A DNA stretch of 64,000 bases from Escherichia coli (GTDB lineage: Bacteria; Pseudomonadota; Gammaproteobacteria; Enterobacterales; Enterobacteriaceae), in NCBI RefSeq assembly GCF_024700885.2, contig NZ_CP117016.1, one strand, 5' to 3'. The translations under genes were made by a program, and so were the position numbers. The notes under the pieces are model-generated. The model worked only from the letters and a program-made list of their open reading frames with translations. It was not told the DNA's origin and did not search any database. This document shows, piece after piece, positions 12,459 to 51,830 of this stretch. How positions within the stretch are numbered: position 1 is the stretch's first letter; each line of letters starts with the position of its first letter.

Positions 12459-13712
12459 TTATTGTGGTTCATTTTTACTCAAAAACGATATAGACAGGAA
12501 GAGGCACACAATCCACGATGCCGGTATTGGTTTAGCATGTGTAATGACATCACTAATGCCAAATAACATAATAGAAGCAGGGAAAACCAAGAGTATATAT
12601 TTTTTCTCTCGTATACAGTAATAGATCATTGCAACATAGAACATAATAAGAACAAGAAGACCAATTTTTCCTTTCGTGGAAAGAGATTCCACAATTTCGT
12701 TATGCATATGTACATCAAGGAATAATAAAGCTCCACTATAAATATTATTTTCTGCACTTAATGCTTTTATCTTTTCAGCACGCTGCTCAAGAGATTGCCA
12801 ATTAAAACCATCAGGACTTCCTTTAATTCCTGCATTAACCATTGCAAAACGTGCTCCGACCGAGGATTGACTGTTATTTTTTGTAGCATATGAAATAACA
12901 TCAGCTTTTAATGAATTAATTCGCCTATCAATTTCCTTATTAAATATCAAACCACAAGCAAGTAGCAATATAAAAACACCACTCAATCCTTTAAATAAAA
13001 ACACTTTTTGATCACGATGCTGAAGAAATAATATGACCATAATCATAAGTGGGAATGTGAAAATTGCCGCACGCGTTCCTGTCATCATTACTGCTGCAAA
13101 GCTTAAAGCAAAGTTAGCATAAAATAGAAACCATTTATATTTCGATTGCATTTTTATGAATACAATTGAAGAATATAAAGTTGTAAATGTAATCACATAA
13201 GCCGCAATAGTCGCTGCCCCCATCTGACCAATATTCCCATTCATGGCGGAGAGGGGAATGCGGTCTGCATGCAAATATATCCCTTGATAATATGCTCTAC
13301 ATAGCATGATTATTTGAACTAAGATAGCTGAAATAAAATGTAGTTTTTCATTTTGCCTGAATTTATTTTTACTTAGTAATAAAAATGTCAACGAGCTAAA
13401 TACTAATAGTTTTCCAGACTCAAGGTAGCCTCGATAAGCATTTCTATATACTACATCTTCTGTTTTATAAAATTCATACCATATAAGGTTCATTGCACCC
13501 AAAAGAAGTAAACCAAGAATTAATATAATGACATTTTTATTATAATTGTGCTTTTTATTTACAATTAATAAGAAAAGAGAAAATGCACCTGTCGCATTAA
13601 TTATTTTAGTGGTGATATTAAGATCAATTGGCACAAACAACAAACCGATTAAATACAATAAAAAAATAAAATTACAGCTATTATTTCGAAATTGCTCAAT
13701 TTTTACTTCCAC
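12459..13712 (-). CDS. waaL: O-antigen ligase (WaaL family), polytopic membrane protein
   Basis: 417-aa very hydrophobic AT-rich ORF at the distal end of the minus-strand outer-core operon; the position WaaL occupies in R1/R3/R4 core types. Confidence 0.8.
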   Translation of the reverse strand: MEVKIEQFRNNSCNFIFLLYLIGLLFVPIDLNITTKIINATGAFSLFLLIVNKKHNYNKNVIILILGLLLLGAMNLIWYEFYKTEDVVYRNAYRGYLESGKLLVFSSLTFLLLSKNKFRQNEKLHFISAILVQIIMLCRAYYQGIYLHADRIPLSAMNGNIGQMGAATIAAYVITFTTLYSSIVFIKMQSKYKWFLFYANFALSFAAVMMTGTRAAIFTFPLMIMVILFLQHRDQKVFLFKGLSGVFILLLACGLIFNKEIDRRINSLKADVISYATKNNSQSSVGARFAMVNAGIKGSPDGFNWQSLEQRAEKIKALSAENNIYSGALLFLDVHMHNEIVESLSTKGKIGLLVLIMFYVAMIYYCIREKKYILLVFPASIMLFGISDVITHAKPIPASWIVCLFLSISFLSKNEPQ

Positions 13713-13746
13713 GTTAATATCTCACAACAAATTGAAATTAACAATC

Positions 13747-14520
13747 TCATTTCAAAAGAGAAAAAAAAGCCACCTTTATCCAGGAGCGTATAAACTTCAT
13801 TCTTTTCTGAAGCCTTGTTCTAGGTTGTTTTTTTTCCGATGTTAATAGCCTTTCACTTTCAAGATGACTATTAAACTCATTTAAAATAGGATGTAATATT
13901 ATTTCGTCTAAATAAAACTCTTTTATAATATTATGTTGATGCATTAACTTCCAGCTATCAGCTCGATAGGTGCCATAATCCTTTGTCAATTTGAGCAACT
14001 TTTGTGCCATATCTTTATTCATCAAATATGAACATGTACGACGAATTTTATTTTTATTGAAATTAACACGCCGAAAAGTACAAGTACTTACCTTAACTTT
14101 ACTAAAAAGGCTTTGCCCCAATACCGGATAATCATGTAATCCTTTCTGTCCTCCAAGCAAATACAAATTATTATGTTTTAACTTGTCTTTTTCAGGAAGA
14201 TTAAAATATTGCAGAAATTTTTTAAATTTCTCATTGACGATAACATCATCCTCGAGAATGACTGCCCATTCTATATTTTTATCTATCATATCCTTATATA
14301 TAAGCTGATGACTTAATGTACAAGCAATTTCTCCATCAGTCATTTCTGCGCCGACACCACTTAATCTCATTTTATCAATAATTTCTTTATTTTGAGGGTC
14401 TTTAGCATCTATGGCATCAAAAAAATCAAAATTAATATTTAATCGATGAAAAACATCATTTATTTTATTTCTTCGCTCAATATCTCTTTTAAGTGAGACA
14501 ATATAAATGGGCAGGTTCAT
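13747..14520 (-). CDS. outer-core beta-glycosyltransferase, GT25 (Lic2A/LgtB-like) family; WaaV/WaaX position
   Basis: 257-aa ORF beginning IYIVSLKRDIERR, typical GT25 N-terminus; cannot decide WaaV (R1) versus WaaX (R4) without alignment. Confidence 0.7.
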   Translation of the reverse strand: MNLPIYIVSLKRDIERRNKINDVFHRLNINFDFFDAIDAKDPQNKEIIDKMRLSGVGAEMTDGEIACTLSHQLIYKDMIDKNIEWAVILEDDVIVNEKFKKFLQYFNLPEKDKLKHNNLYLLGGQKGLHDYPVLGQSLFSKVKVSTCTFRRVNFNKNKIRRTCSYLMNKDMAQKLLKLTKDYGTYRADSWKLMHQHNIIKEFYLDEIILHPILNEFNSHLESERLLTSEKKQPRTRLQKRMKFIRSWIKVAFFSLLK

Positions 14521-14551
14521 TAAAAAATCTCTGGGTGATTAATCTTAATAA

Positions 14552-15580
14552 TTATTTGGAAAAATGCTTACGCGCTATTTTCTTACTATAATAGAGCATG
14601 AAATAGTAAAATGAAGATGCAATATTACCATTTCTTTTCAAATGTCCGGATTTCACTTGATACTGCTTTTCATTCGTGGCTGGAATAAACGCCACATCAT
14701 TCCAGCAAGAAGCCTGATAAGCCTCATTAAAATACTTCTGGCAGGGATAATTCGTCCAGTCGTTCCAGGGCTTCGTTACGCCAACATAATGAATCAGCTT
14801 AGTATCATCGGTAATGGTCTTTTTATAATCTTCATCGCTTTTATTTTTTAACTCATAGTCAATGCCATAAAAGCAATCATAATCGCCGCTAATAAAAATA
14901 CAATGACCAAAGAACAGAATATTTAAAATATCCTGATCAAGGCATTTATACTTCGTATGCTGCGGGTCACTTGCCAGCATAGCAATGGCTTTATTCATAA
15001 AATCATTTTTCGCCCATGCTTCAAGCTGCAGATATACTACACCGGCGTTGAAATAATTACCTGGAAGTCCCTCTATAGCCAGACGCTTCGCTGGTTTTTC
15101 CTGCATAAAAGGCACATCTTTAATAACAGCTGCGAACTTATCGCCATCAAAATTAATATCAAGCAATCCAGCTAATGAGCCTTTACAGATGACATCAGCA
15201 TCGATATATAACAGATTTTCAATAACTTCACTCAGATACTGGAACGCAACTAAACGGAAGAATGTTGCATAAGACCACTGTTTCAGGCTGGGGAAGATAT
15301 CAATAAAGGCACTGGAGACTTTATAAATTCTTACTTCAACGTTAGCATTTTTGCTAGTAAAAGCGTTAACACGTTGTAGATAATCTTCATCAATGTAGTC
15401 GGTAAAGAGATGAAACTTAACCGCAAGGTCCGGGTTATGCATAATAACTGATTGCATAGATACTGCCGCACCAAATAAAAAGTTGCGGTCAATACCGTAA
15501 GCGATATTTAACACACGATCGGTGTTAGTAATTTTCCCAGAGACAGTGACTTCAGTAATACTCTCAGCTAATAAATCCAT
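14552..15580 (-). CDS. outer-core alpha-glycosyltransferase, GT8 family (WaaW-like position)
   Basis: 342-aa ORF with GT8 signature (YGID...NAGVVY...DQD); paralogous to the two GT8 ORFs at 16308-18336. Confidence 0.75.
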   Translation of the reverse strand: MDLLAESITEVTVSGKITNTDRVLNIAYGIDRNFLFGAAVSMQSVIMHNPDLAVKFHLFTDYIDEDYLQRVNAFTSKNANVEVRIYKVSSAFIDIFPSLKQWSYATFFRLVAFQYLSEVIENLLYIDADVICKGSLAGLLDINFDGDKFAAVIKDVPFMQEKPAKRLAIEGLPGNYFNAGVVYLQLEAWAKNDFMNKAIAMLASDPQHTKYKCLDQDILNILFFGHCIFISGDYDCFYGIDYELKNKSDEDYKKTITDDTKLIHYVGVTKPWNDWTNYPCQKYFNEAYQASCWNDVAFIPATNEKQYQVKSGHLKRNGNIASSFYYFMLYYSKKIARKHFSK

Positions 15581-15605
15581 GTTGGTTCCGTTTTGACTGT
15601 GTGGT

Positions 15606-16298
15606 TTACGCTTTGCCTTTTAATTTTTTAATAAATTTGCGTAGTTTGGTTCTGTAGATTACTGAATAGTAGCCATAATCTTTTATTTCGTTGGCAATAC
15701 CCAGGTGACGTTCCATGGCCAGACGATCACGAGCTTTACGCTCTGCCGTACAGCTTTTACCGGATAGGTCAATTATCCTGACACCATCTTTACTAACGAT
15801 AAAGTTACCCCGGTGTGGGTCGCCCGATAGCATATTTAAGGCATGCAATTTTTCCATTGAAGCCTTAATTTCTGCTTTAACATTTTCTGGAATAATCGGC
15901 ATATCATTGAGCTCTACGCCCTCGACATACTCGATAAGCATGATAAAAACACTGGCATAGTTGAAAAATTTACGCTCAGCCAGAAAATAAAAATCATTAG
16001 GAAAAGTAAGACCTGCACTTCTGACACGATCGGTTTCAACGATCAAATTCTGATAGTAGTCACCTTTTACAAAAGATTTAAAAAAACGTTCATTCCTTTT
16101 CGTTTTCGGAGCAAAGACTTTAAAAACATAGCGACCATATTTCGTATCAATCAACGATACTTTGGTATCATCAATATTACGTAATACTTTTACTGTTTTA
16201 AAATTATAGGCCAGTATTTCATCAAAGATTTCTTTATATTTATTATCATTATCTTTGTAATAAAATGAGAAGCCGCGATAACGTATACTTGTAATCAT
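15606..16298 (-). CDS. waaY: LPS core heptose II kinase
   Basis: 230-aa kinase-like ORF in the position WaaY holds in the core operon. Confidence 0.8.
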   Translation of the reverse strand: MITSIRYRGFSFYYKDNDNKYKEIFDEILAYNFKTVKVLRNIDDTKVSLIDTKYGRYVFKVFAPKTKRNERFFKSFVKGDYYQNLIVETDRVRSAGLTFPNDFYFLAERKFFNYASVFIMLIEYVEGVELNDMPIIPENVKAEIKASMEKLHALNMLSGDPHRGNFIVSKDGVRIIDLSGKSCTAERKARDRLAMERHLGIANEIKDYGYYSVIYRTKLRKFIKKLKGKA

Positions 16299-16307
16299 AA
16301 GAGTAAT

Positions 16308-17303
16308 TTATTTCTTAAGCTTGTACTTAATTAATGAAGTTATGCCTTTTATATACTCACCATGGGCAAACAGATGCTTATATTGTTTCTGCATTTCTGC
16401 AACAGTCCGCGCCTCTTTAAGAGGATATTTCTTCCAGGGAGATTGTTCACGCGCGATATTAAAGTATGATGCAGACGGATATCCAGCCCAGCTATGCCAT
16501 GGTTTAGTTATCCCTGTATAGTGAATCAACACTGTTTTATCGGTAATGGTTTGCTGATACTTTCGATGACTACGATCATAAAGTTCGTTTTTCAGGGTAT
16601 AAATAGTATCAAAATCCTTCGCAAGGTAGATATTATTCATATTAAATGCGATATTCAACGCATCCTGATCTAAATATTTAAGAGAGCCATATTTAGTTTC
16701 CCCTCGTAAAAGTTTGAGTAAATACGGTGTCAAATTTGCTTCATGCCATTTTTTAAGATTGACATAGATAACGCCTGCATTGAAATAACGTCCATTCATT
16801 TCGGGAATGTTGAGGCGTTTTGCACATGCCGCCTGAGTACTATCATTGTCAGGAATGACCGCAGCAAACTCATCTTTAAATATAATTTCTGTGAGAGGTT
16901 TCAGGCTTCCTTTACAAACAACATCGGCATCCAGATACAGCAGTGTGGAAATACTTTCACTCAGATATTCAAAAGACAATACCCTGAAGTATGTCGCGTA
17001 CGACCAAAACTGTGACGTCGGCAGATCAGCAAAGTATTTGGGGTCAATTAAATATACAATAATTGAGGTATTAAATTGTTTTGCTGTTTCATTAAATGAC
17101 TTTAAATAATCATCATCCACATAATCAGTGAAAACATGAAAGACAAAATTAATATCTGAATTATTAATCAAAACGGAAGAAATTGAAACGCCAGCACCAT
17201 ACAAAAAATTCTTATCGATACCGTAGGAAACATTTAGCTCTGGGGCGTTTTCTTTTTTATTATCTGCTAAATACGAAAACCGTTCTTTTATAAATTCATT
17301 CAT
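16308..17303 (-). CDS. outer-core alpha-glycosyltransferase, GT8 family (WaaT-like position)
   Basis: 331-aa GT8 ORF; paralog of neighbours. Confidence 0.75.
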   Translation of the reverse strand: MNEFIKERFSYLADNKKENAPELNVSYGIDKNFLYGAGVSISSVLINNSDINFVFHVFTDYVDDDYLKSFNETAKQFNTSIIVYLIDPKYFADLPTSQFWSYATYFRVLSFEYLSESISTLLYLDADVVCKGSLKPLTEIIFKDEFAAVIPDNDSTQAACAKRLNIPEMNGRYFNAGVIYVNLKKWHEANLTPYLLKLLRGETKYGSLKYLDQDALNIAFNMNNIYLAKDFDTIYTLKNELYDRSHRKYQQTITDKTVLIHYTGITKPWHSWAGYPSASYFNIAREQSPWKKYPLKEARTVAEMQKQYKHLFAHGEYIKGITSLIKYKLKK

Positions 17304-17319
17304 TTAACTTTTCTCAATT

Positions 17320-18336
17320 TCATTTTATTATCTTTAAATAAAAATAATAAATATAATTCATTATCCCGTTAATTGGTTTATTTTGTTTAAAATTATGCTT
17401 GGCGCAATAACGAGCATAGTTTGAGTTAACTGGCCGCATTAACGGTTCATTTTTCCAGGGCGATGCTTCTTTGGCTTTGATAAAAGGTTGCGCACTTGGA
17501 TAACCGGCCCAGTAATGCCAGGGTTTTGTCGGGCCGACATAATGAATTAATACGGTTTCATCATTAATTGGACAAACAAATGATTTTTTTAATTCATAAT
17601 TTAAACTAAATTGCGTATTGTATTTAGCATCAATGAATTTAACTTTCCCTAACAGGATAAGATTAAGGATATCTTGATCCATATAGGTTAAACGGGAAAC
17701 GATGGCTTTATCAGCAAGCATCGACATCGCTTTAGCAGAAACGGACTCCTGCGCCCACGCTAGTGTATTAATTAACAGGACACCTGAATTAAAGTAACCC
17801 TTTTCAAGTTCATTACACTGCAGACTTTGACCCCGTAACGACCACCAGTTAGCATCGCGTTCAGTAACAACAGCAGCAACGTTATTGGCAAGATCCATTG
17901 TTATCAGCGGCTTTAAGTTTCCCTGACAGGCGATATCAGCATCCAGGTAAAGGATCTTATCTTGTTGATCAATAAAGTAATCTGCAATTACAAAACGGAA
18001 ATACATGGCAATAGACCAATTTTTGGTCGTCGGTAATGCCTTAAGCCGTTCACAATTTACTAGATGGATCTGGATACAGGTACGATAGCTTTTCGCCAAT
18101 TGGGCTAAACGCTGGATATCGGCTTCAGGGATAGCATCAATAAAAACGTGGAAAACAAAACTCACGTCGTTGTTATGTAACAAAACTGACGTGATTGAAA
18201 CACCACAACCAAAAAGAAAGTTTTTATCAATGCCATAAGAAACATGGAATGATGATGCCACTGACGCCGCTGGCCTTTCATCGAAGATGATTGTCTTATT
18301 GATCATCTCTTGTGGATTAAAATAGTGGGCACTCAT
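17320..18336 (-). CDS. outer-core alpha-1,3-glucosyltransferase, GT8 family (WaaO-like position)
   Basis: 338-aa GT8 ORF directly downstream of waaP. Confidence 0.75.
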   Translation of the reverse strand: MSAHYFNPQEMINKTIIFDERPAASVASSFHVSYGIDKNFLFGCGVSITSVLLHNNDVSFVFHVFIDAIPEADIQRLAQLAKSYRTCIQIHLVNCERLKALPTTKNWSIAMYFRFVIADYFIDQQDKILYLDADIACQGNLKPLITMDLANNVAAVVTERDANWWSLRGQSLQCNELEKGYFNSGVLLINTLAWAQESVSAKAMSMLADKAIVSRLTYMDQDILNLILLGKVKFIDAKYNTQFSLNYELKKSFVCPINDETVLIHYVGPTKPWHYWAGYPSAQPFIKAKEASPWKNEPLMRPVNSNYARYCAKHNFKQNKPINGIMNYIYYFYLKIIK

Positions 18337-47203: not shown

Positions 47204-48586
47204 TTAATTCTGCACTTCTTGAGAGGCGAATTGTTGCTGGCAACGGCGTTTGCCCTGGGCCAGCTGTTCCATAACGGTTTTCAGATTGTGCGTCGTGAGT
47301 GAGTAGTAGCGTTTAGCGATAATCGCGCTCAGCAAATAACAGATCGCTGGAACAATCGTGAATAGCGCAATAATGATGCTAATCGTGGCGCTGTTCTGCG
47401 CTTTTTCTGCCGCATCATATCCGCCATAAGCCAGCATCCAGCCGATAAGAGCGCCGCCGAAGGCCAACCCCAGTTTGAGCACAAACAGCGTGCCAGCAAA
47501 ACTGATCCCGGTCAGGCGTTTACCATTGCACCACTCGCCGTAGTCGACGGTATCGGACATCATTACCCACTGGATAGGTGTCACCAGTTGATGCAACACA
47601 CCAATCACGAAGATGAAGACAAACATGGTGATGCTGGCCTGCATAGGAACAAAGAACATCGCGAGGCTAATCACTGCCAGCAGGGCGTTCGTCCACCAGA
47701 AGATAGTGACTTTACATTTCCAGTCGGTCAGCGGTTTTGCCAGAGCGGAACCAATCAGGTTACCCACGCAATAAGTGGTGAGAAAAGCGACAAACACTTC
47801 CGGCGTACCCAAAATCCATGTGACGTAATACATCATCGCTCCACCGCGTACGCACACCGCCAGGATATTGAAAATGGTTAGTAAACCGACAATCCGCCAC
47901 TGGTCGTTTTGCCAGATATCACGTAAATCTTCCCGCATAGACGTCGTTGTAGGTGGTGCTTCAACGCGTTCTTTAGTGGTGAAGAAACAAAATGCCAGCA
48001 TCATAAATGCCACCACAGAAAGGACCGCGATACCGCCCTGGAAACCGAGTGGTTTATTATCACCACCAATTAAATTAACCAGCGGCATCATCAGCACAGT
48101 AGAGAGCATGCCTCCCGCGGTCGCCAGCACAAAACGCCAGGATTGCAGCGAGATACGCTGAGTCGGGTCATTGGTGATTACACCACCCAATGCGCAGTAA
48201 GGGATATTAACGATGGTATAAAGTAAGGTAAGTAGGGTGTAAGTAATTGCTGCATAAATCATTTTTCCGTTCATACTGAGATCTGGCGTGCTATAGGCCA
48301 GTACACAGACGATCCCAAATGGCAGTGCGCCAAACAGTACCCACGGACGAAATTTACCCCAGCGAGAGCGCGTTCGATCGGCCAACAACCCCATGCAAGG
48401 ATCGGAAATCGCATCCAGTGCACGAGCGACCAAAAACATGGTTCCGACAAATCCGGCAGGAATGCCAAAAATATCGGTATAAAAGAACATCATATATAAC
48501 ATTACGTTATCGAAAATAATGTGGCTGGCGGCGTCTCCCATGCCATAACCAATTTTCTCTTTAACGGACAACACTTCACTCTTCAT
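47204..48586 (-). CDS. yicJ: GPH-family sugar:cation symporter YicJ
   Basis: 460-aa product from MKSEVLSVKEKIGYGMGDAASH; operon partner of yicI. Confidence 0.9.
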   Translation of the reverse strand: MKSEVLSVKEKIGYGMGDAASHIIFDNVMLYMMFFYTDIFGIPAGFVGTMFLVARALDAISDPCMGLLADRTRSRWGKFRPWVLFGALPFGIVCVLAYSTPDLSMNGKMIYAAITYTLLTLLYTIVNIPYCALGGVITNDPTQRISLQSWRFVLATAGGMLSTVLMMPLVNLIGGDNKPLGFQGGIAVLSVVAFMMLAFCFFTTKERVEAPPTTTSMREDLRDIWQNDQWRIVGLLTIFNILAVCVRGGAMMYYVTWILGTPEVFVAFLTTYCVGNLIGSALAKPLTDWKCKVTIFWWTNALLAVISLAMFFVPMQASITMFVFIFVIGVLHQLVTPIQWVMMSDTVDYGEWCNGKRLTGISFAGTLFVLKLGLAFGGALIGWMLAYGGYDAAEKAQNSATISIIIALFTIVPAICYLLSAIIAKRYYSLTTHNLKTVMEQLAQGKRRCQQQFASQEVQN

Positions 48587-48878
48587 CTGCTTTTCCTTGA
48601 TGCTATAGGGGTGCTGAGACCGATAACGCATTTTGTAAACCATCCCTGTGAGAGCGAATATTCCGATATCTGGTTATTAATTTATGATTCTTGTTTTATG
48701 TGATCGTGGTAGCGTTAATTCCGCTCATATATCATTGTAAAATATGGATTTTATATGAATTATAATGCTTTCGTGATAATACGCTGCGTGTATTAGGCGG
48801 AAAAAACTGATCTGGGGGATGTAGAAACTCAAGGAAGTAGCTATAATGCGCCCCGCCTCCATGTAGCAATCGAGGCGC

Positions 48879-48973
48879 GGAAGATCGTCGTCTCCGGTGA
48901 GGCGGCTGGACTTCAAATCCAGTTGGGGCCGCCAGCGGTCCCGGGCAGGTTCGACTCCTGTGATCTTCCGCCA
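48879..48973 (+). tRNA. selC: tRNA-Sec (selenocysteine, UCA anticodon), 95 nt including CCA
   Basis: Sequence GGAAGATCGTCGTCTCCGGTGAGGCGGCTGGACTTCAAATCCAGTTGGGGCCGCCAGCGGTCCCGGGCAGGTTCGACTCCTGTGATCTTCCGCCA read directly; long extra arm and 8-bp acceptor stem typical of tRNA-Sec. Confidence 0.97.
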
Positions 48974-49611
48974 AAATGCCTCTTCATACGTTCTCCAACC
49001 CCTTGTAATACTGTCAATCCAGAGATTTTCTATCTGCTCAATATTCAATCGGCTTCAGGAATACCTGATCAAAGGATTTGTGATGGACGATGAGCGACAG
49101 AAGAATCCGCCTGTCGGTTCTTCTGTCCTCGAACGCATCCGCGATATTCGCGCCAGCATGCGCCGTGTTTATTTGCAGGTGATTTGCCCCCTGCTGACTC
49201 TCAGCCAACTGTATCGCCATTAAGGTGAAGATGTTGTTTTACACGCCCCAGAACACCCTTTTTTTATACGATGATTCTATTCCTTTAACCGCTGGCGAAA
49301 AAAACTGACCTATAAACTTCACCAATAATCAGACTGCCATCAAGATTAATTTGTTCATTTAATATATCAAATAAACTTGTTTTATTTTTACTATCAAAAA
49401 TAGCTCATTGCCTTACTATAATTAATATATAAATTCGGTAATTAATTCTTAACATGCTTTTGCTAATAATCTCAATTGCTGGCCCTATAATATTGCGCTA
49501 GCATTGCTTTCTGGTTGTATCAGCGATACTCAAAAATTCTTAATATAATACTCATTCGACTGGTACTTATTTGTAACTCAGTTATATTTTGTCGCCCGGT
49601 GATTCAGAAGA

Positions 49612-50796
49612 ATGCAAAAAACGGCTACCACTCCATCAAAAATACTTGATCTCACTGCCGCGGCATTTTTACTTGTCGCCTTTCTGACTGGTATTGCGGG
49701 CGCTCTCCAGACTCCCACCCTAAGTATATTCCTCGCAGATGAACTGAAAGCCCGTCCTATAATGGTAGGTTTTTTCTTCACCGGTAGCGCTATTATGGGA
49801 ATTCTGGTCAGTCAATTTCTGGCAAGGCACTCCGATAAACAAGGCGACCGTAAATTACTGATCCTGCTATGTTGCTTATTTGGAGTGCTGGCCTGCACGC
49901 TTTTTGCGTGGAATCGCAACTACTTCATTCTCCTCTCTACGGGCGTACTTCTGAGTAGTTTTGCTTCCACTGCAAACCCGCAAATGTTCGCCCTCGCCCG
50001 TGAACACGCCGACAGAACAGGTCGTGAGACGGTCATGTTCAGTACATTTTTACGTGCTCAGATCTCGCTTGCCTGGGTTATCGGGCCACCGCTCGCTTAT
50101 GAGCTGGCAATGGGATTTAGTTTTAAAGTGATGTATCTCACCGCTGCCATCGCATTTGTTATTTGCGGGCTGATAGTCTGGTTGTTTTTGCCATCAATAC
50201 AAAGAAATATTCCTGTCGTTACCCAACCCGTAGAAATTTTACCCTCCATCCATAGAAAGCGGGATACACGGCTACTTTTTGTGGTCTGTTCAATGATGTG
50301 GGCGGCGAATAATCTCTACATGATAAATATGCCGCTATTTATTATTGATGAACTGCATCTAACCGATAAACTGGCTGGAGAAATGATTGGTATCGCTGCC
50401 GGTCTGGAAATTCCGATGATGTTAATCGCAGGCTATTACATGAAACGTATTGGCAAGCGACTATTAATGCTCATTGCTATCGTGAGTGGTATGTGTTTTT
50501 ACGCCAGCGTACTCATGGCGACGACTCCGGCAGTAGAGCTGGAATTGCAAATTCTAAATGCCATCTTCCTTGGTATTCTCTGTGGTATCGGCATGCTTTA
50601 TTTTCAGGACCTGATGCCTGAAAAAATAGGTTCTGCGACAACATTATATGCAAATACCTCACGCGTCGGCTGGATTATCGCCGGCTCTGTTGACGGAATT
50701 ATGGTTGAAATCTGGAGCTACCACGCGTTGTTCTGGCTGGCGATAGGTATGTTGGGTATTGCGATGATTTGCCTGCTGTTTATTAAAGATATTTAG
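49612..50796 (+). CDS. setC: sugar efflux transporter C (MFS)
   Basis: 394-aa MFS ORF matching SetC/YicK; preceded by a long, very AT-rich leader. Confidence 0.9.
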   Translation: MQKTATTPSKILDLTAAAFLLVAFLTGIAGALQTPTLSIFLADELKARPIMVGFFFTGSAIMGILVSQFLARHSDKQGDRKLLILLCCLFGVLACTLFAWNRNYFILLSTGVLLSSFASTANPQMFALAREHADRTGRETVMFSTFLRAQISLAWVIGPPLAYELAMGFSFKVMYLTAAIAFVICGLIVWLFLPSIQRNIPVVTQPVEILPSIHRKRDTRLLFVVCSMMWAANNLYMINMPLFIIDELHLTDKLAGEMIGIAAGLEIPMMLIAGYYMKRIGKRLLMLIAIVSGMCFYASVLMATTPAVELELQILNAIFLGILCGIGMLYFQDLMPEKIGSATTLYANTSRVGWIIAGSVDGIMVEIWSYHALFWLAIGMLGIAMICLLFIKDI

Positions 50797-50906
50797 CTCA
50801 CCTGTCTGGGCTAAGAAAAATCGGCGTGGCGCAAACAGAGCCATCCTCGCCATTTTTGCTATCATGCCTGCATACATAAACGACAAAACAGTATGCAGAG
50901 GGAAAA

Positions 50907-51830
50907 ATGGGTTCCACCAGAAAGGGGATGCTGAACGTTCTGATTGCCGCCGTGTTGTGGGGAAGTTCAGGGGTCTGCGCGCAATACATCATGGAGCAAA
51001 GCCAGATGTCGTCGCAGTTTTTGACTATGACGCGTTTGATATTCGCCGGTTTGATTCTGCTGACGCTGTCATTTGTTCATGGCGATAAAATCTTTTCTAT
51101 TATTAACAATCACAAAGATGCCATTAGTCTGCTGATTTTTTCCGTGGTTGGCGCGCTAACCGTACAGCTCACTTTTTTGCTAACCATTGAAAAATCGAAT
51201 GCTGCCACGGCAACGGTGCTGCAATTCCTCTCACCGACGATTATCGTCGCCTGGTTCTCACTGGTGCGTAAATCTCGCCCGGGCATTCTGGTTTTCTGCG
51301 CTATTTTGACATCGCTGATCGGGACTTTTTTATTGGTGACACACGGTAATCCGACGTCATTATCGATCTCTCCTGCCGCGTTATTCTGGGGCATTGCCTC
51401 GGCATTTGCTGCTGCATTCTATACCACCTATCCCTCAACGCTGATTGCCCGCTATGGCACGTTACCGGTCGTCGGCTGGAGTATGCTGATCGGTGGTCTG
51501 ATCCTGCTGCCCTTCTATGCCGGGCAAGGAACAAACTTCGTGGTTAATGGCAGCCTGATTCTGGCGTTTTTCTATCTGGTGGTAATCGGAACTTCGCTAA
51601 CCTTTAGTCTATATCTGAAAGGCGCACAGCTCATTGGCGGTCCAAAAGCCAGCATTCTGAGCTGTGCAGAACCATTAAGTAGCGCGCTGCTCTCTTTGCT
51701 GTTGCTGGGGATCACGTTCACATTGCCGGACTGGCTGGGAACGCTGCTGATTCTGTCATCGGTGATTTTGATTTCAATGGATTCTCGTCGCCGCGCCAGA
51801 AAAATAAATCGTCCGGCGCGGCATGAGTGA
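50907..51830 (+). CDS. yicL: EamA/DMT-family transporter YicL
   Basis: 307-aa ORF with 10 predicted TM segments. Confidence 0.9.

Follow-up and report, generated by a model that had tools for sequence, protein, structure and literature searches.

The interval between selC, encoding tRNA-Sec, and the transporter gene setC in this Escherichia coli strain is best explained, with a probability of about 80%, as a two-part composite, in which island debris on the left is joined to an H-NS-bound upstream region of setC on the right, the whole belonging to an arrangement conserved among non-B2 strains. We analysed it within a stretch of 64,000 nucleotides, hereafter the window. The AT-rich part, the binding of H-NS and the rhuM pseudogene are already known from the literature or from standard annotation. 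A sequence-only reading had proposed either an H-NS-bound curved promoter region for setC or a scar of insertion and excision at selC. The former description suits 49251-49611, which is ~98% identical to a K-12 promoter island and has a predicted bend at 49396, but not the left part; the latter suits 48974-49234, with its island-arm homologue and rhuM fragment, except that the event is neither recent nor strain-specific.

ARAGORN and Rfam (RF01852, 83.8 bits) place tRNA-Sec at 48879-48973 and the 394-aa MFS transporter ORF of setC starts at 49612; 48974-49611 is therefore the exact selC-setC spacer, of 638 bp, with the boundaries that had been given for it. Its overall GC content is 37.9%, as against a window mean of 48.2%. 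The earlier description of an extremely AT-rich 640-bp interval, far more AT-rich than the neighboring intergenic regions, fits only the 3' 361 bp (~57% of the spacer): 49251-49611 has 30.5% GC and drops as low as 25.9% in 49300-49500, but 48974-49250 has 47.7%, equal to the window mean, and the nearby yicJ-selC, setC-yicL and nlpA-yicS spacers have 40.4, 47.3 and 35.9% respectively. The AT-rich part is among the lowest 2% of 361-bp windows, and longer stretches of lower GC occur elsewhere, at 13-17.7 kb and 56-59.5 kb. The supposedly long A/T runs are modest: a T7, an A7 and three 5-base runs, none exceeding 7 bases. In length and AT content alike, 12900-17700 surpasses all other stretches of the window, with ~30% GC over several kb; the minus-strand ORFs among which it lies resemble the waa LPS-core cluster, and the published list of promoter islands also includes several waa spacers (PMC3661553).

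Table 1. Features of the selC-setC spacer and its surroundings (window coordinates)
Feature	Position	Strand	Basis or remark
selC tRNA-Sec	48879-48973	+	3' end is the attachment site of selC islands; homology of island-bearing genomes breaks at 48973-48985
51-bp flank	48974-49024	+	Island-arm homologue; alignment of post-selC sequence from six genomes
Whole replacing block	48984-50877	+	Replaces the B2-type/E. fergusonii rhuM-DR-rhuM''-hyp
Filler, 27 bp	49025-49051	.	No similarity to B2 rhuM codons upstream of 121
rhuM pseudogene remnant (rhuM')	49052-49234 (49052-49206 firm, to 49234 possible)	+	Pfam PF13310, tblastn, PGAP
Transition zone, GC falling	49235-49330	.	Fast-evolving, pi 6.4%, indels
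Orthologue of K-12 promoter island 3834632_331	49267-49598	+	Coordinates of PMC3661553 transferred via alignment
Phased T4/T5/A5 tracts, predicted intrinsic bend	49378-49405	.	Wedge model
Most conserved 149 bp	49463-49611	+	Adjoins the setC ATG; 3/149 sites variable among 9 lineages
CTATAAT, candidate -10	49485-49491	+	C at -13, no good -35; nearest exact -10 hexamer to the sigma-38 peak
setC, MFS sugar efflux transporter	49612-50796	+	Pfam MFS_1, E 7.6e-41

The flank that immediately follows selC has a near-identical counterpart in the attL arm (integrase side) of the O157:H7 selC island and recognisable relatives in the same arms of the selC islands of O18 and BL21; in O157:H7 TR01 a 36-bp match lies 15-50 bp past selC, ahead of the int gene. 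Judged by this resemblance, the flank looks like the relic of an element arm or, alternatively, an extended att identity segment. The filler beyond it, 15 bases of which are deleted in strain 702/18, marks a deletion junction (49025-49051/49052), because rhuM homology begins abruptly at 49052. An ORF of the spacer matches the Pfam family PF13310 (Virulence_RhuM) with 44.6 bits (cut-off 33.7, E 1.5e-11) over profile positions 50-99 of 252; the match thus exceeds the gathering score of the family, and the coding sequence is not full-length. In tblastn comparisons with the intact B2 RhuM the remnant corresponds to residues 121-171, with 40/51 identical (78%) and an 8-codon internal deletion, and the DNA alignment runs on to about residue 183 at 49206 (identity 76%, chain alignment z=57), with a possible 13-bp patch at 49222-49234 that corresponds to residues 228-233. 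The N- and C-termini of RhuM are absent, and no further piece of it is present within 48800-51000. There is no detectable rhuM homology in 49235-49330, and past 49251 it is not above chance (z=1.6-1.8); an extension of rhuM into the AT-rich part was accordingly rejected, its short patchy matches being judged chance.

As only ~51-63 of the 345 codons survive, no protein is possible from this remnant. The RefSeq annotation (PGAP) has a 'rhuM, incomplete' pseudogene, without both termini, in strain 1190 and in K-12-like strains. The K-12 pseudogene of this spacer is, we presume, the one named yicT, under which name the literature yielded only unrelated papers. The copy in the window is free of internal stops, with a frame open to 49223, unlike that of K-12 and BL21, in which a TAA occupies the position of 49071; frameshifts or a 15-bp deletion are found in other lineages. 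The inactivating lesions thus differ between lineages. With 76% identity to the intact Escherichia rhuM, the fragment does not simply represent that allele in decayed form, and since two intact orthologues are ~91% identical to each other, these identity levels suggest that rhuM' probably derives from a different rhuM-bearing element. RhuM-family sequence likewise adjoins selC in Salmonella, where SPI-3 of S. Typhimurium holds rhuM and sits at tRNA-selC (PMC3680342); the K-12 orthologue of the E. coli fragment is the rhuM pseudogene annotated by PGAP. The left part of the spacer hence combines arm homology, a rhuM fragment and variable presence among strains, as would the remains of an island or a scar.

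The history of the locus is illuminated by an alternative allele. In 844 genomes, including LF82 and other B2-type strains, selC is followed by an intact rhuM, a selC 3' repeat (CGACTCCTGTGATC-GCCAAAATGCCTCTTCA), a rhuM remnant, a gene for a 165-aa hypothetical protein and yicL, and setC is absent. In TUM13066 the intact 345-aa rhuM lies 52 bp past selC. E. fergusonii displays the same arrangement, colinear over 2.7 kb at 91.8% identity with the repeat core included, and being common to an outgroup the B2-type arrangement is probably the older one. Homology of the window to the B2 locus (L006) and that of E. fergusonii (L095) extends to 48983 and is found again from 50878 onwards, 30 bp short of yicL. 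The two arrangements occupy the same slot (selC+10 to 30 bp before yicL) and both have rhuM material right after selC, but the B2-type/E. fergusonii one has an intact rhuM and a selC 3' repeat and lacks setC and the AT-rich spacer. As neither the 844 genomes nor E. fergusonii have setC, the rhuM'-AT-setC block would itself be old accessory DNA, and from these comparisons we infer that it took the place of the rhuM islet in the majority of E. coli lineages. In both TUM13066 (L006, 9791-10250) and E. fergusonii the rhuM gene between selC and a degenerate repeat constitutes a 1.2-kb one-gene islet, and a second, older rhuM remnant (~aa 163-240) is found just past the B2-type selC repeat. The intact islet, this older remnant and rhuM' together imply at least three generations of rhuM-bearing elements at the selC site. 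The Salmonella yicL directly adjoins SPI-3, at the right end of that island (misL to mgtCB), and one Citrobacter genome has unrelated cargo in the selC-yicL slot.

By its distribution setC is an accessory gene: it is absent from ~1660 complete E. coli genomes, and E. fergusonii, Salmonella and Citrobacter lack it between selC and yicL. A comparison with 100,044 species representatives yielded no relative of more than 72% identity, and the one at 72% in E. coli corresponds to setB (72% DNA identity). Since only proteins of at most 72% were found, other species offered no setC orthologue through which to trace the AT-rich region. The gene has 45.8% GC, and its GC3 is 47.6% as against 56-58% in yicJ and yicL. 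In K-12 deletion of setC raises intracellular arabinose and over-expression lowers it (PMC3429515), which indicates that the gene is expressed there.

We next consider how the spacer is distributed over 5426 complete E. coli genomes. Of these, 5424 have selC together with the flank upstream of it and 3618 have the full spacer, namely K-12 and 3617 others, mostly at 95-99% identity (96-97% in K-12); only 24 genomes have it at 99% identity or more, and strain 1190 at 100%. This comparison with reference genomes was one that the sequence-only reading had recommended, with the proviso that identical sequence in island-free strains would make the spacer ordinary backbone; the outcome tells against a strain-specific scar, and yet the spacer is not plain backbone either. 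It is contiguous with selC in 2486 genomes, and ~1130 carry the full spacer non-contiguously, as in BL21, where a 21-kb island that ends in the attR repeat TTCGACTCCTGTGATCT--GCCA lies between selC and the spacer, which follows directly. The selC island of EAEC 042 has been described with the same layout (PMC7058095). Overall, contiguity from selC to rhuM' is broken at 48973-48985 in ~2900 of the 5426 genomes. Given that modern islands insert between selC and the spacer, the latter is DNA left untouched beyond attR rather than damage specific to a strain. In comparison with selC islands such as LEE, selC-A of EAEC 042 and the 21-kb island of BL21, the attachment site is the same, the spacer lies beyond their attR and its first 51 bp resemble their attL arms, but integrase and direct repeat are both lacking and setC is the sole cargo, which is an empty-site configuration.

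Searches for the selC 3' repeat gave a best local score of 11 in the spacer (P=0.23), with positive controls scoring 26 (B2) and 28 (BL21); none was found between setC and yicL, nor elsewhere across the 64-kb window when up to 5 mismatches in 24 were allowed. The partial selC duplicate that had been suggested as a check is thus absent from the window as a whole, including the spacer and the setC-yicL interval. No integrase gene adjoins the tRNA gene and no ORF of the spacer exceeds 108 aa; in the islands of O18, O157 and BL21 the int gene is situated 200-300 bp past selC. Plasmid and phage origins of the block were also rejected: the plasmid hits proved to be wrongly labelled chromosomes or else the setB paralogue, and the phage hits are two 'Campylobacter phage' records apparently holding E. 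coli DNA plus one Salmonella rhuM homologue. The two records, MG065686.1 (68924-69559) and MG065691.1 (104564-105199), are unannotated, 174 kb in length and contain the whole spacer at 96.4% identity, a K-12-like level; E. coli contamination is most likely. In strain Z142-6 (L003) two IS1 elements and a truncated integrase replace the selC-to-setC interval except for the last 55 bp before setC, indicating that the AT-rich upstream region can be lost with setC retained.

Another part of the window, 53400-64000, located after yicS, is occupied by the selC-B/eip locus, which codes for a SycD/LcrH-type chaperone, a YopB/SseC-like translocon protein, a SipD-like tip protein, the HilA-family regulator eilA and the very large inverse autotransporter iatC/eaeX. 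It matches the ETT2-associated locus described for EAEC 042 and ST69, and K-12 has nepI in its place.

The right part of the spacer has a well-studied counterpart in K-12. There the spacer is 636 bp long and selC ends at 3836316 in version-3 coordinates, which, from the genome lengths, we take to be 1977 higher than those of version 2; these values were used to transfer published positions. Promoter islands, defined with PlatProm by a very high density of predicted start points over at least 300 bp, number 78 in the K-12 MG1655 list of Panyukov and Ozoline (2013; U00096.2 coordinates), which includes '3834632_331 selC(+)/setC(+)', associated with a gene predicted to be foreign and marked 'A', denoting binding by H-NS in every ChIP study compared (PMC3661553). 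This island extends from -344 to -14 of setC and its transferred limits match the AT-rich part. K-12 is 98.1% identical across 49251-50100, and over the 361-bp AT-rich part this strain differs from it by 7 substitutions and 2 indels. The sequence is therefore orthologous (~98% identical) to a listed promoter island, AT-rich and in the same position before the gene predicted to be foreign, with binding known from K-12. Genomic SELEX in K-12 further revealed a peak for the sigma38 holoenzyme of RNA polymerase at 3834856 (intensity 22.6) and one for the sigma32 holoenzyme at 3834954 (intensity 3.4) in the same spacer (PMC5493296), which map to ~49492 and ~49590 of the window. We infer three things: that the K-12 binding of H-NS and RNA polymerase carries over to this 98% identical sequence, where the promoter actually lies, and that silencing is the mechanism.

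Examination of the promoter elements partly bore out the claim that TATAAT-like hexamers fill the stretch: three exact copies occur on the plus strand (49417, 49486 and 49544), against 0.6 expected from shuffles (P=0.02), but none on the minus strand, and a two-hexamer sigma-70 scan found no plus-strand site and one site overall, compared with 2.9 expected from composition. The copy at 49544 was made by one substitution, K-12 having TACAAT. Manual inspection revealed no good -35 for any of the three, and a canonical sigma-70 promoter for setC on the plus strand was thus discarded. The element CTATAAT at 49485-49491 may be, as a guess within the resolution of SELEX, the promoter element of the sigma-38 peak.

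Prediction of curvature, another of the proposed checks, gave a mixed result. Using a wedge model based on dinucleotide angles, we predicted one strong bend of 67 degrees per 31 bp at 49396, a value exceeded at only 0.01% of window positions, but the 10.5-bp periodicity of AA/TT is not significant (P=0.21) and the curvature of the fragment as a whole is marginal, 6.7% of shuffles being as curved in terms of end-to-end shortening. The high-affinity H-NS motif TCGATAAATT occurs at chance level. In terms of the H-NS xenogeneic silencing model, the AT-rich upstream DNA, the low-GC accessory gene, the predicted bend and the H-NS occupancy of the orthologue are all shared features, whereas the lack of enrichment of the high-affinity motif is a departure from it.

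Sequence diversity among nine related E. coli lineages also separates the two parts. The value of pi is 6.5% in the arm, 3.7% in rhuM', 6.4% in 49235-49330 and 1.7% in 49331-49611, as compared to 4.1% at third positions of setC, 41 of 395 of which are variable. Variable sites number 50 of 357 on the left and 15 of 281 on the right, a 2.6-fold reduction (p=3e-4). The contrast is strongest at A/T sites (10.8% variable on the left, 2.5% on the right, p=0.001) and not significant at G/C sites alone. This pattern fits constraint on the AT-rich part, with the small sample of related lineages and a compositional effect on mutation as caveats. The most conserved 149 bp presumably comprise the core promoter and 5' UTR of setC.

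Bringing these observations together, we propose that 48974 to ~49234 would be non-functional debris of an old element that once resided in the selC attachment site, made up of the 51-bp arm homologue and ~180 bp from the middle of rhuM, which would be drifting at or above the neutral rate with lesions that differ between lineages. The region from ~49251 to 49611 would act as an AT-rich platform that binds RNA polymerase and over which H-NS spreads, holding setC at a low level of expression with conditional release, as in xenogeneic silencing. The predicted bend around 49396 and several -10-like elements may contribute, CTATAAT at 49485-49491 being the best candidate. New islands would integrate at the 3' end of selC, upstream of the whole spacer, and hence the spacer would stay intact beyond attR.

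Other explanations account for parts of this evidence. That the spacer is the scar of a recent island insertion and excision specific to this strain might be suggested by the frequent disruption of contiguity at selC, a busy integration site, and by the arm-like sequence and gene fragment with which the spacer opens. We nevertheless consider it scarcely credible, given that the same spacer with the same deletion junctions is present in the 3618 genomes, including K-12 and BL21, that the selC 3' repeat is missing from the spacer and across the 64 kb, and that precise integrase-mediated excision would leave nothing behind. The opposite extreme, an ordinary backbone intergenic promoter without any mobile-element history, could appeal to the designation of setC, yicL and nlpA as 'backbone' genes (PMC7058095) and to the 96-97% conservation of the spacer in most E. 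coli. The presence of the rhuM fragment and island-arm homologue, the absence of setC and spacer from the 844 B2-type genomes and the colinear E. fergusonii (91.8%), the atypical GC3 of setC and its want of an orthologue among the representatives of other species render this reading extremely improbable.

Some of the data can be reconciled with the whole spacer being functionless, decaying island DNA on which H-NS sits passively owing to the AT content, with setC driven from elsewhere or barely expressed. The scan recovered no canonical promoter, promoter islands have been reported to be almost silent transcriptionally, the zone at 49235-49330 evolves fast, and the block has no counterpart in the outgroups. 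On the other side, variation in the 281 bp adjoining setC is lower than in the left part and also lower than at the third positions of setC, with only three variable sites in the 149 bp before the ATG; deletion of setC has a phenotype in K-12, and RNA polymerase holoenzymes bind the K-12 sequence in vitro. Further, since rhuM' retains 50% GC and 76% identity, the 30% GC stretch is not simply a more-decayed rhuM, and on balance we regard a functionless spacer as unlikely. The conservation of those same 149 bp, along with the short transcripts reported from promoter islands, could instead point to a hidden small gene or regulatory RNA in the AT-rich part, for instance an sRNA, a leader peptide or a setC riboswitch. 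This is very improbable: a search of 48400-49900 against Rfam 15 recovered only tRNA-Sec at E<=1, the putative 5' UTR of setC folds no better than shuffles (z=-0.48), so that no structured RNA or known RNA family was found in the spacer, and the AT-rich part has only tiny, unsupported ORFs and no terminator-like site. The two-part composite of old debris and an H-NS-bound upstream region thus remains our preferred explanation. A more speculative and doubtful extension of it holds that the block 48984-50877 is a domesticated remnant of a selC island which displaced an older Escherichia rhuM islet, and that its AT-rich part is actively maintained as a nucleation pad for H-NS, shielding setC and yicL from transcription that runs out of any island newly arriving at selC; if this were true, the AT-rich region would have a boundary function beyond that of a promoter, and its A/T sites would be under purifying selection.

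The significance of the composite goes little past correct bookkeeping, and it opens no new question. Within those bounds it furnishes a concrete example in which comparison with an alternative allele and an outgroup shows where a 'promoter island' came from, and it advises caution in calling the boundaries of selC islands against K-12. The 'empty' selC site of reference E. coli would, on this account, not be pristine but layered wreckage joined to a silenced upstream region of setC.
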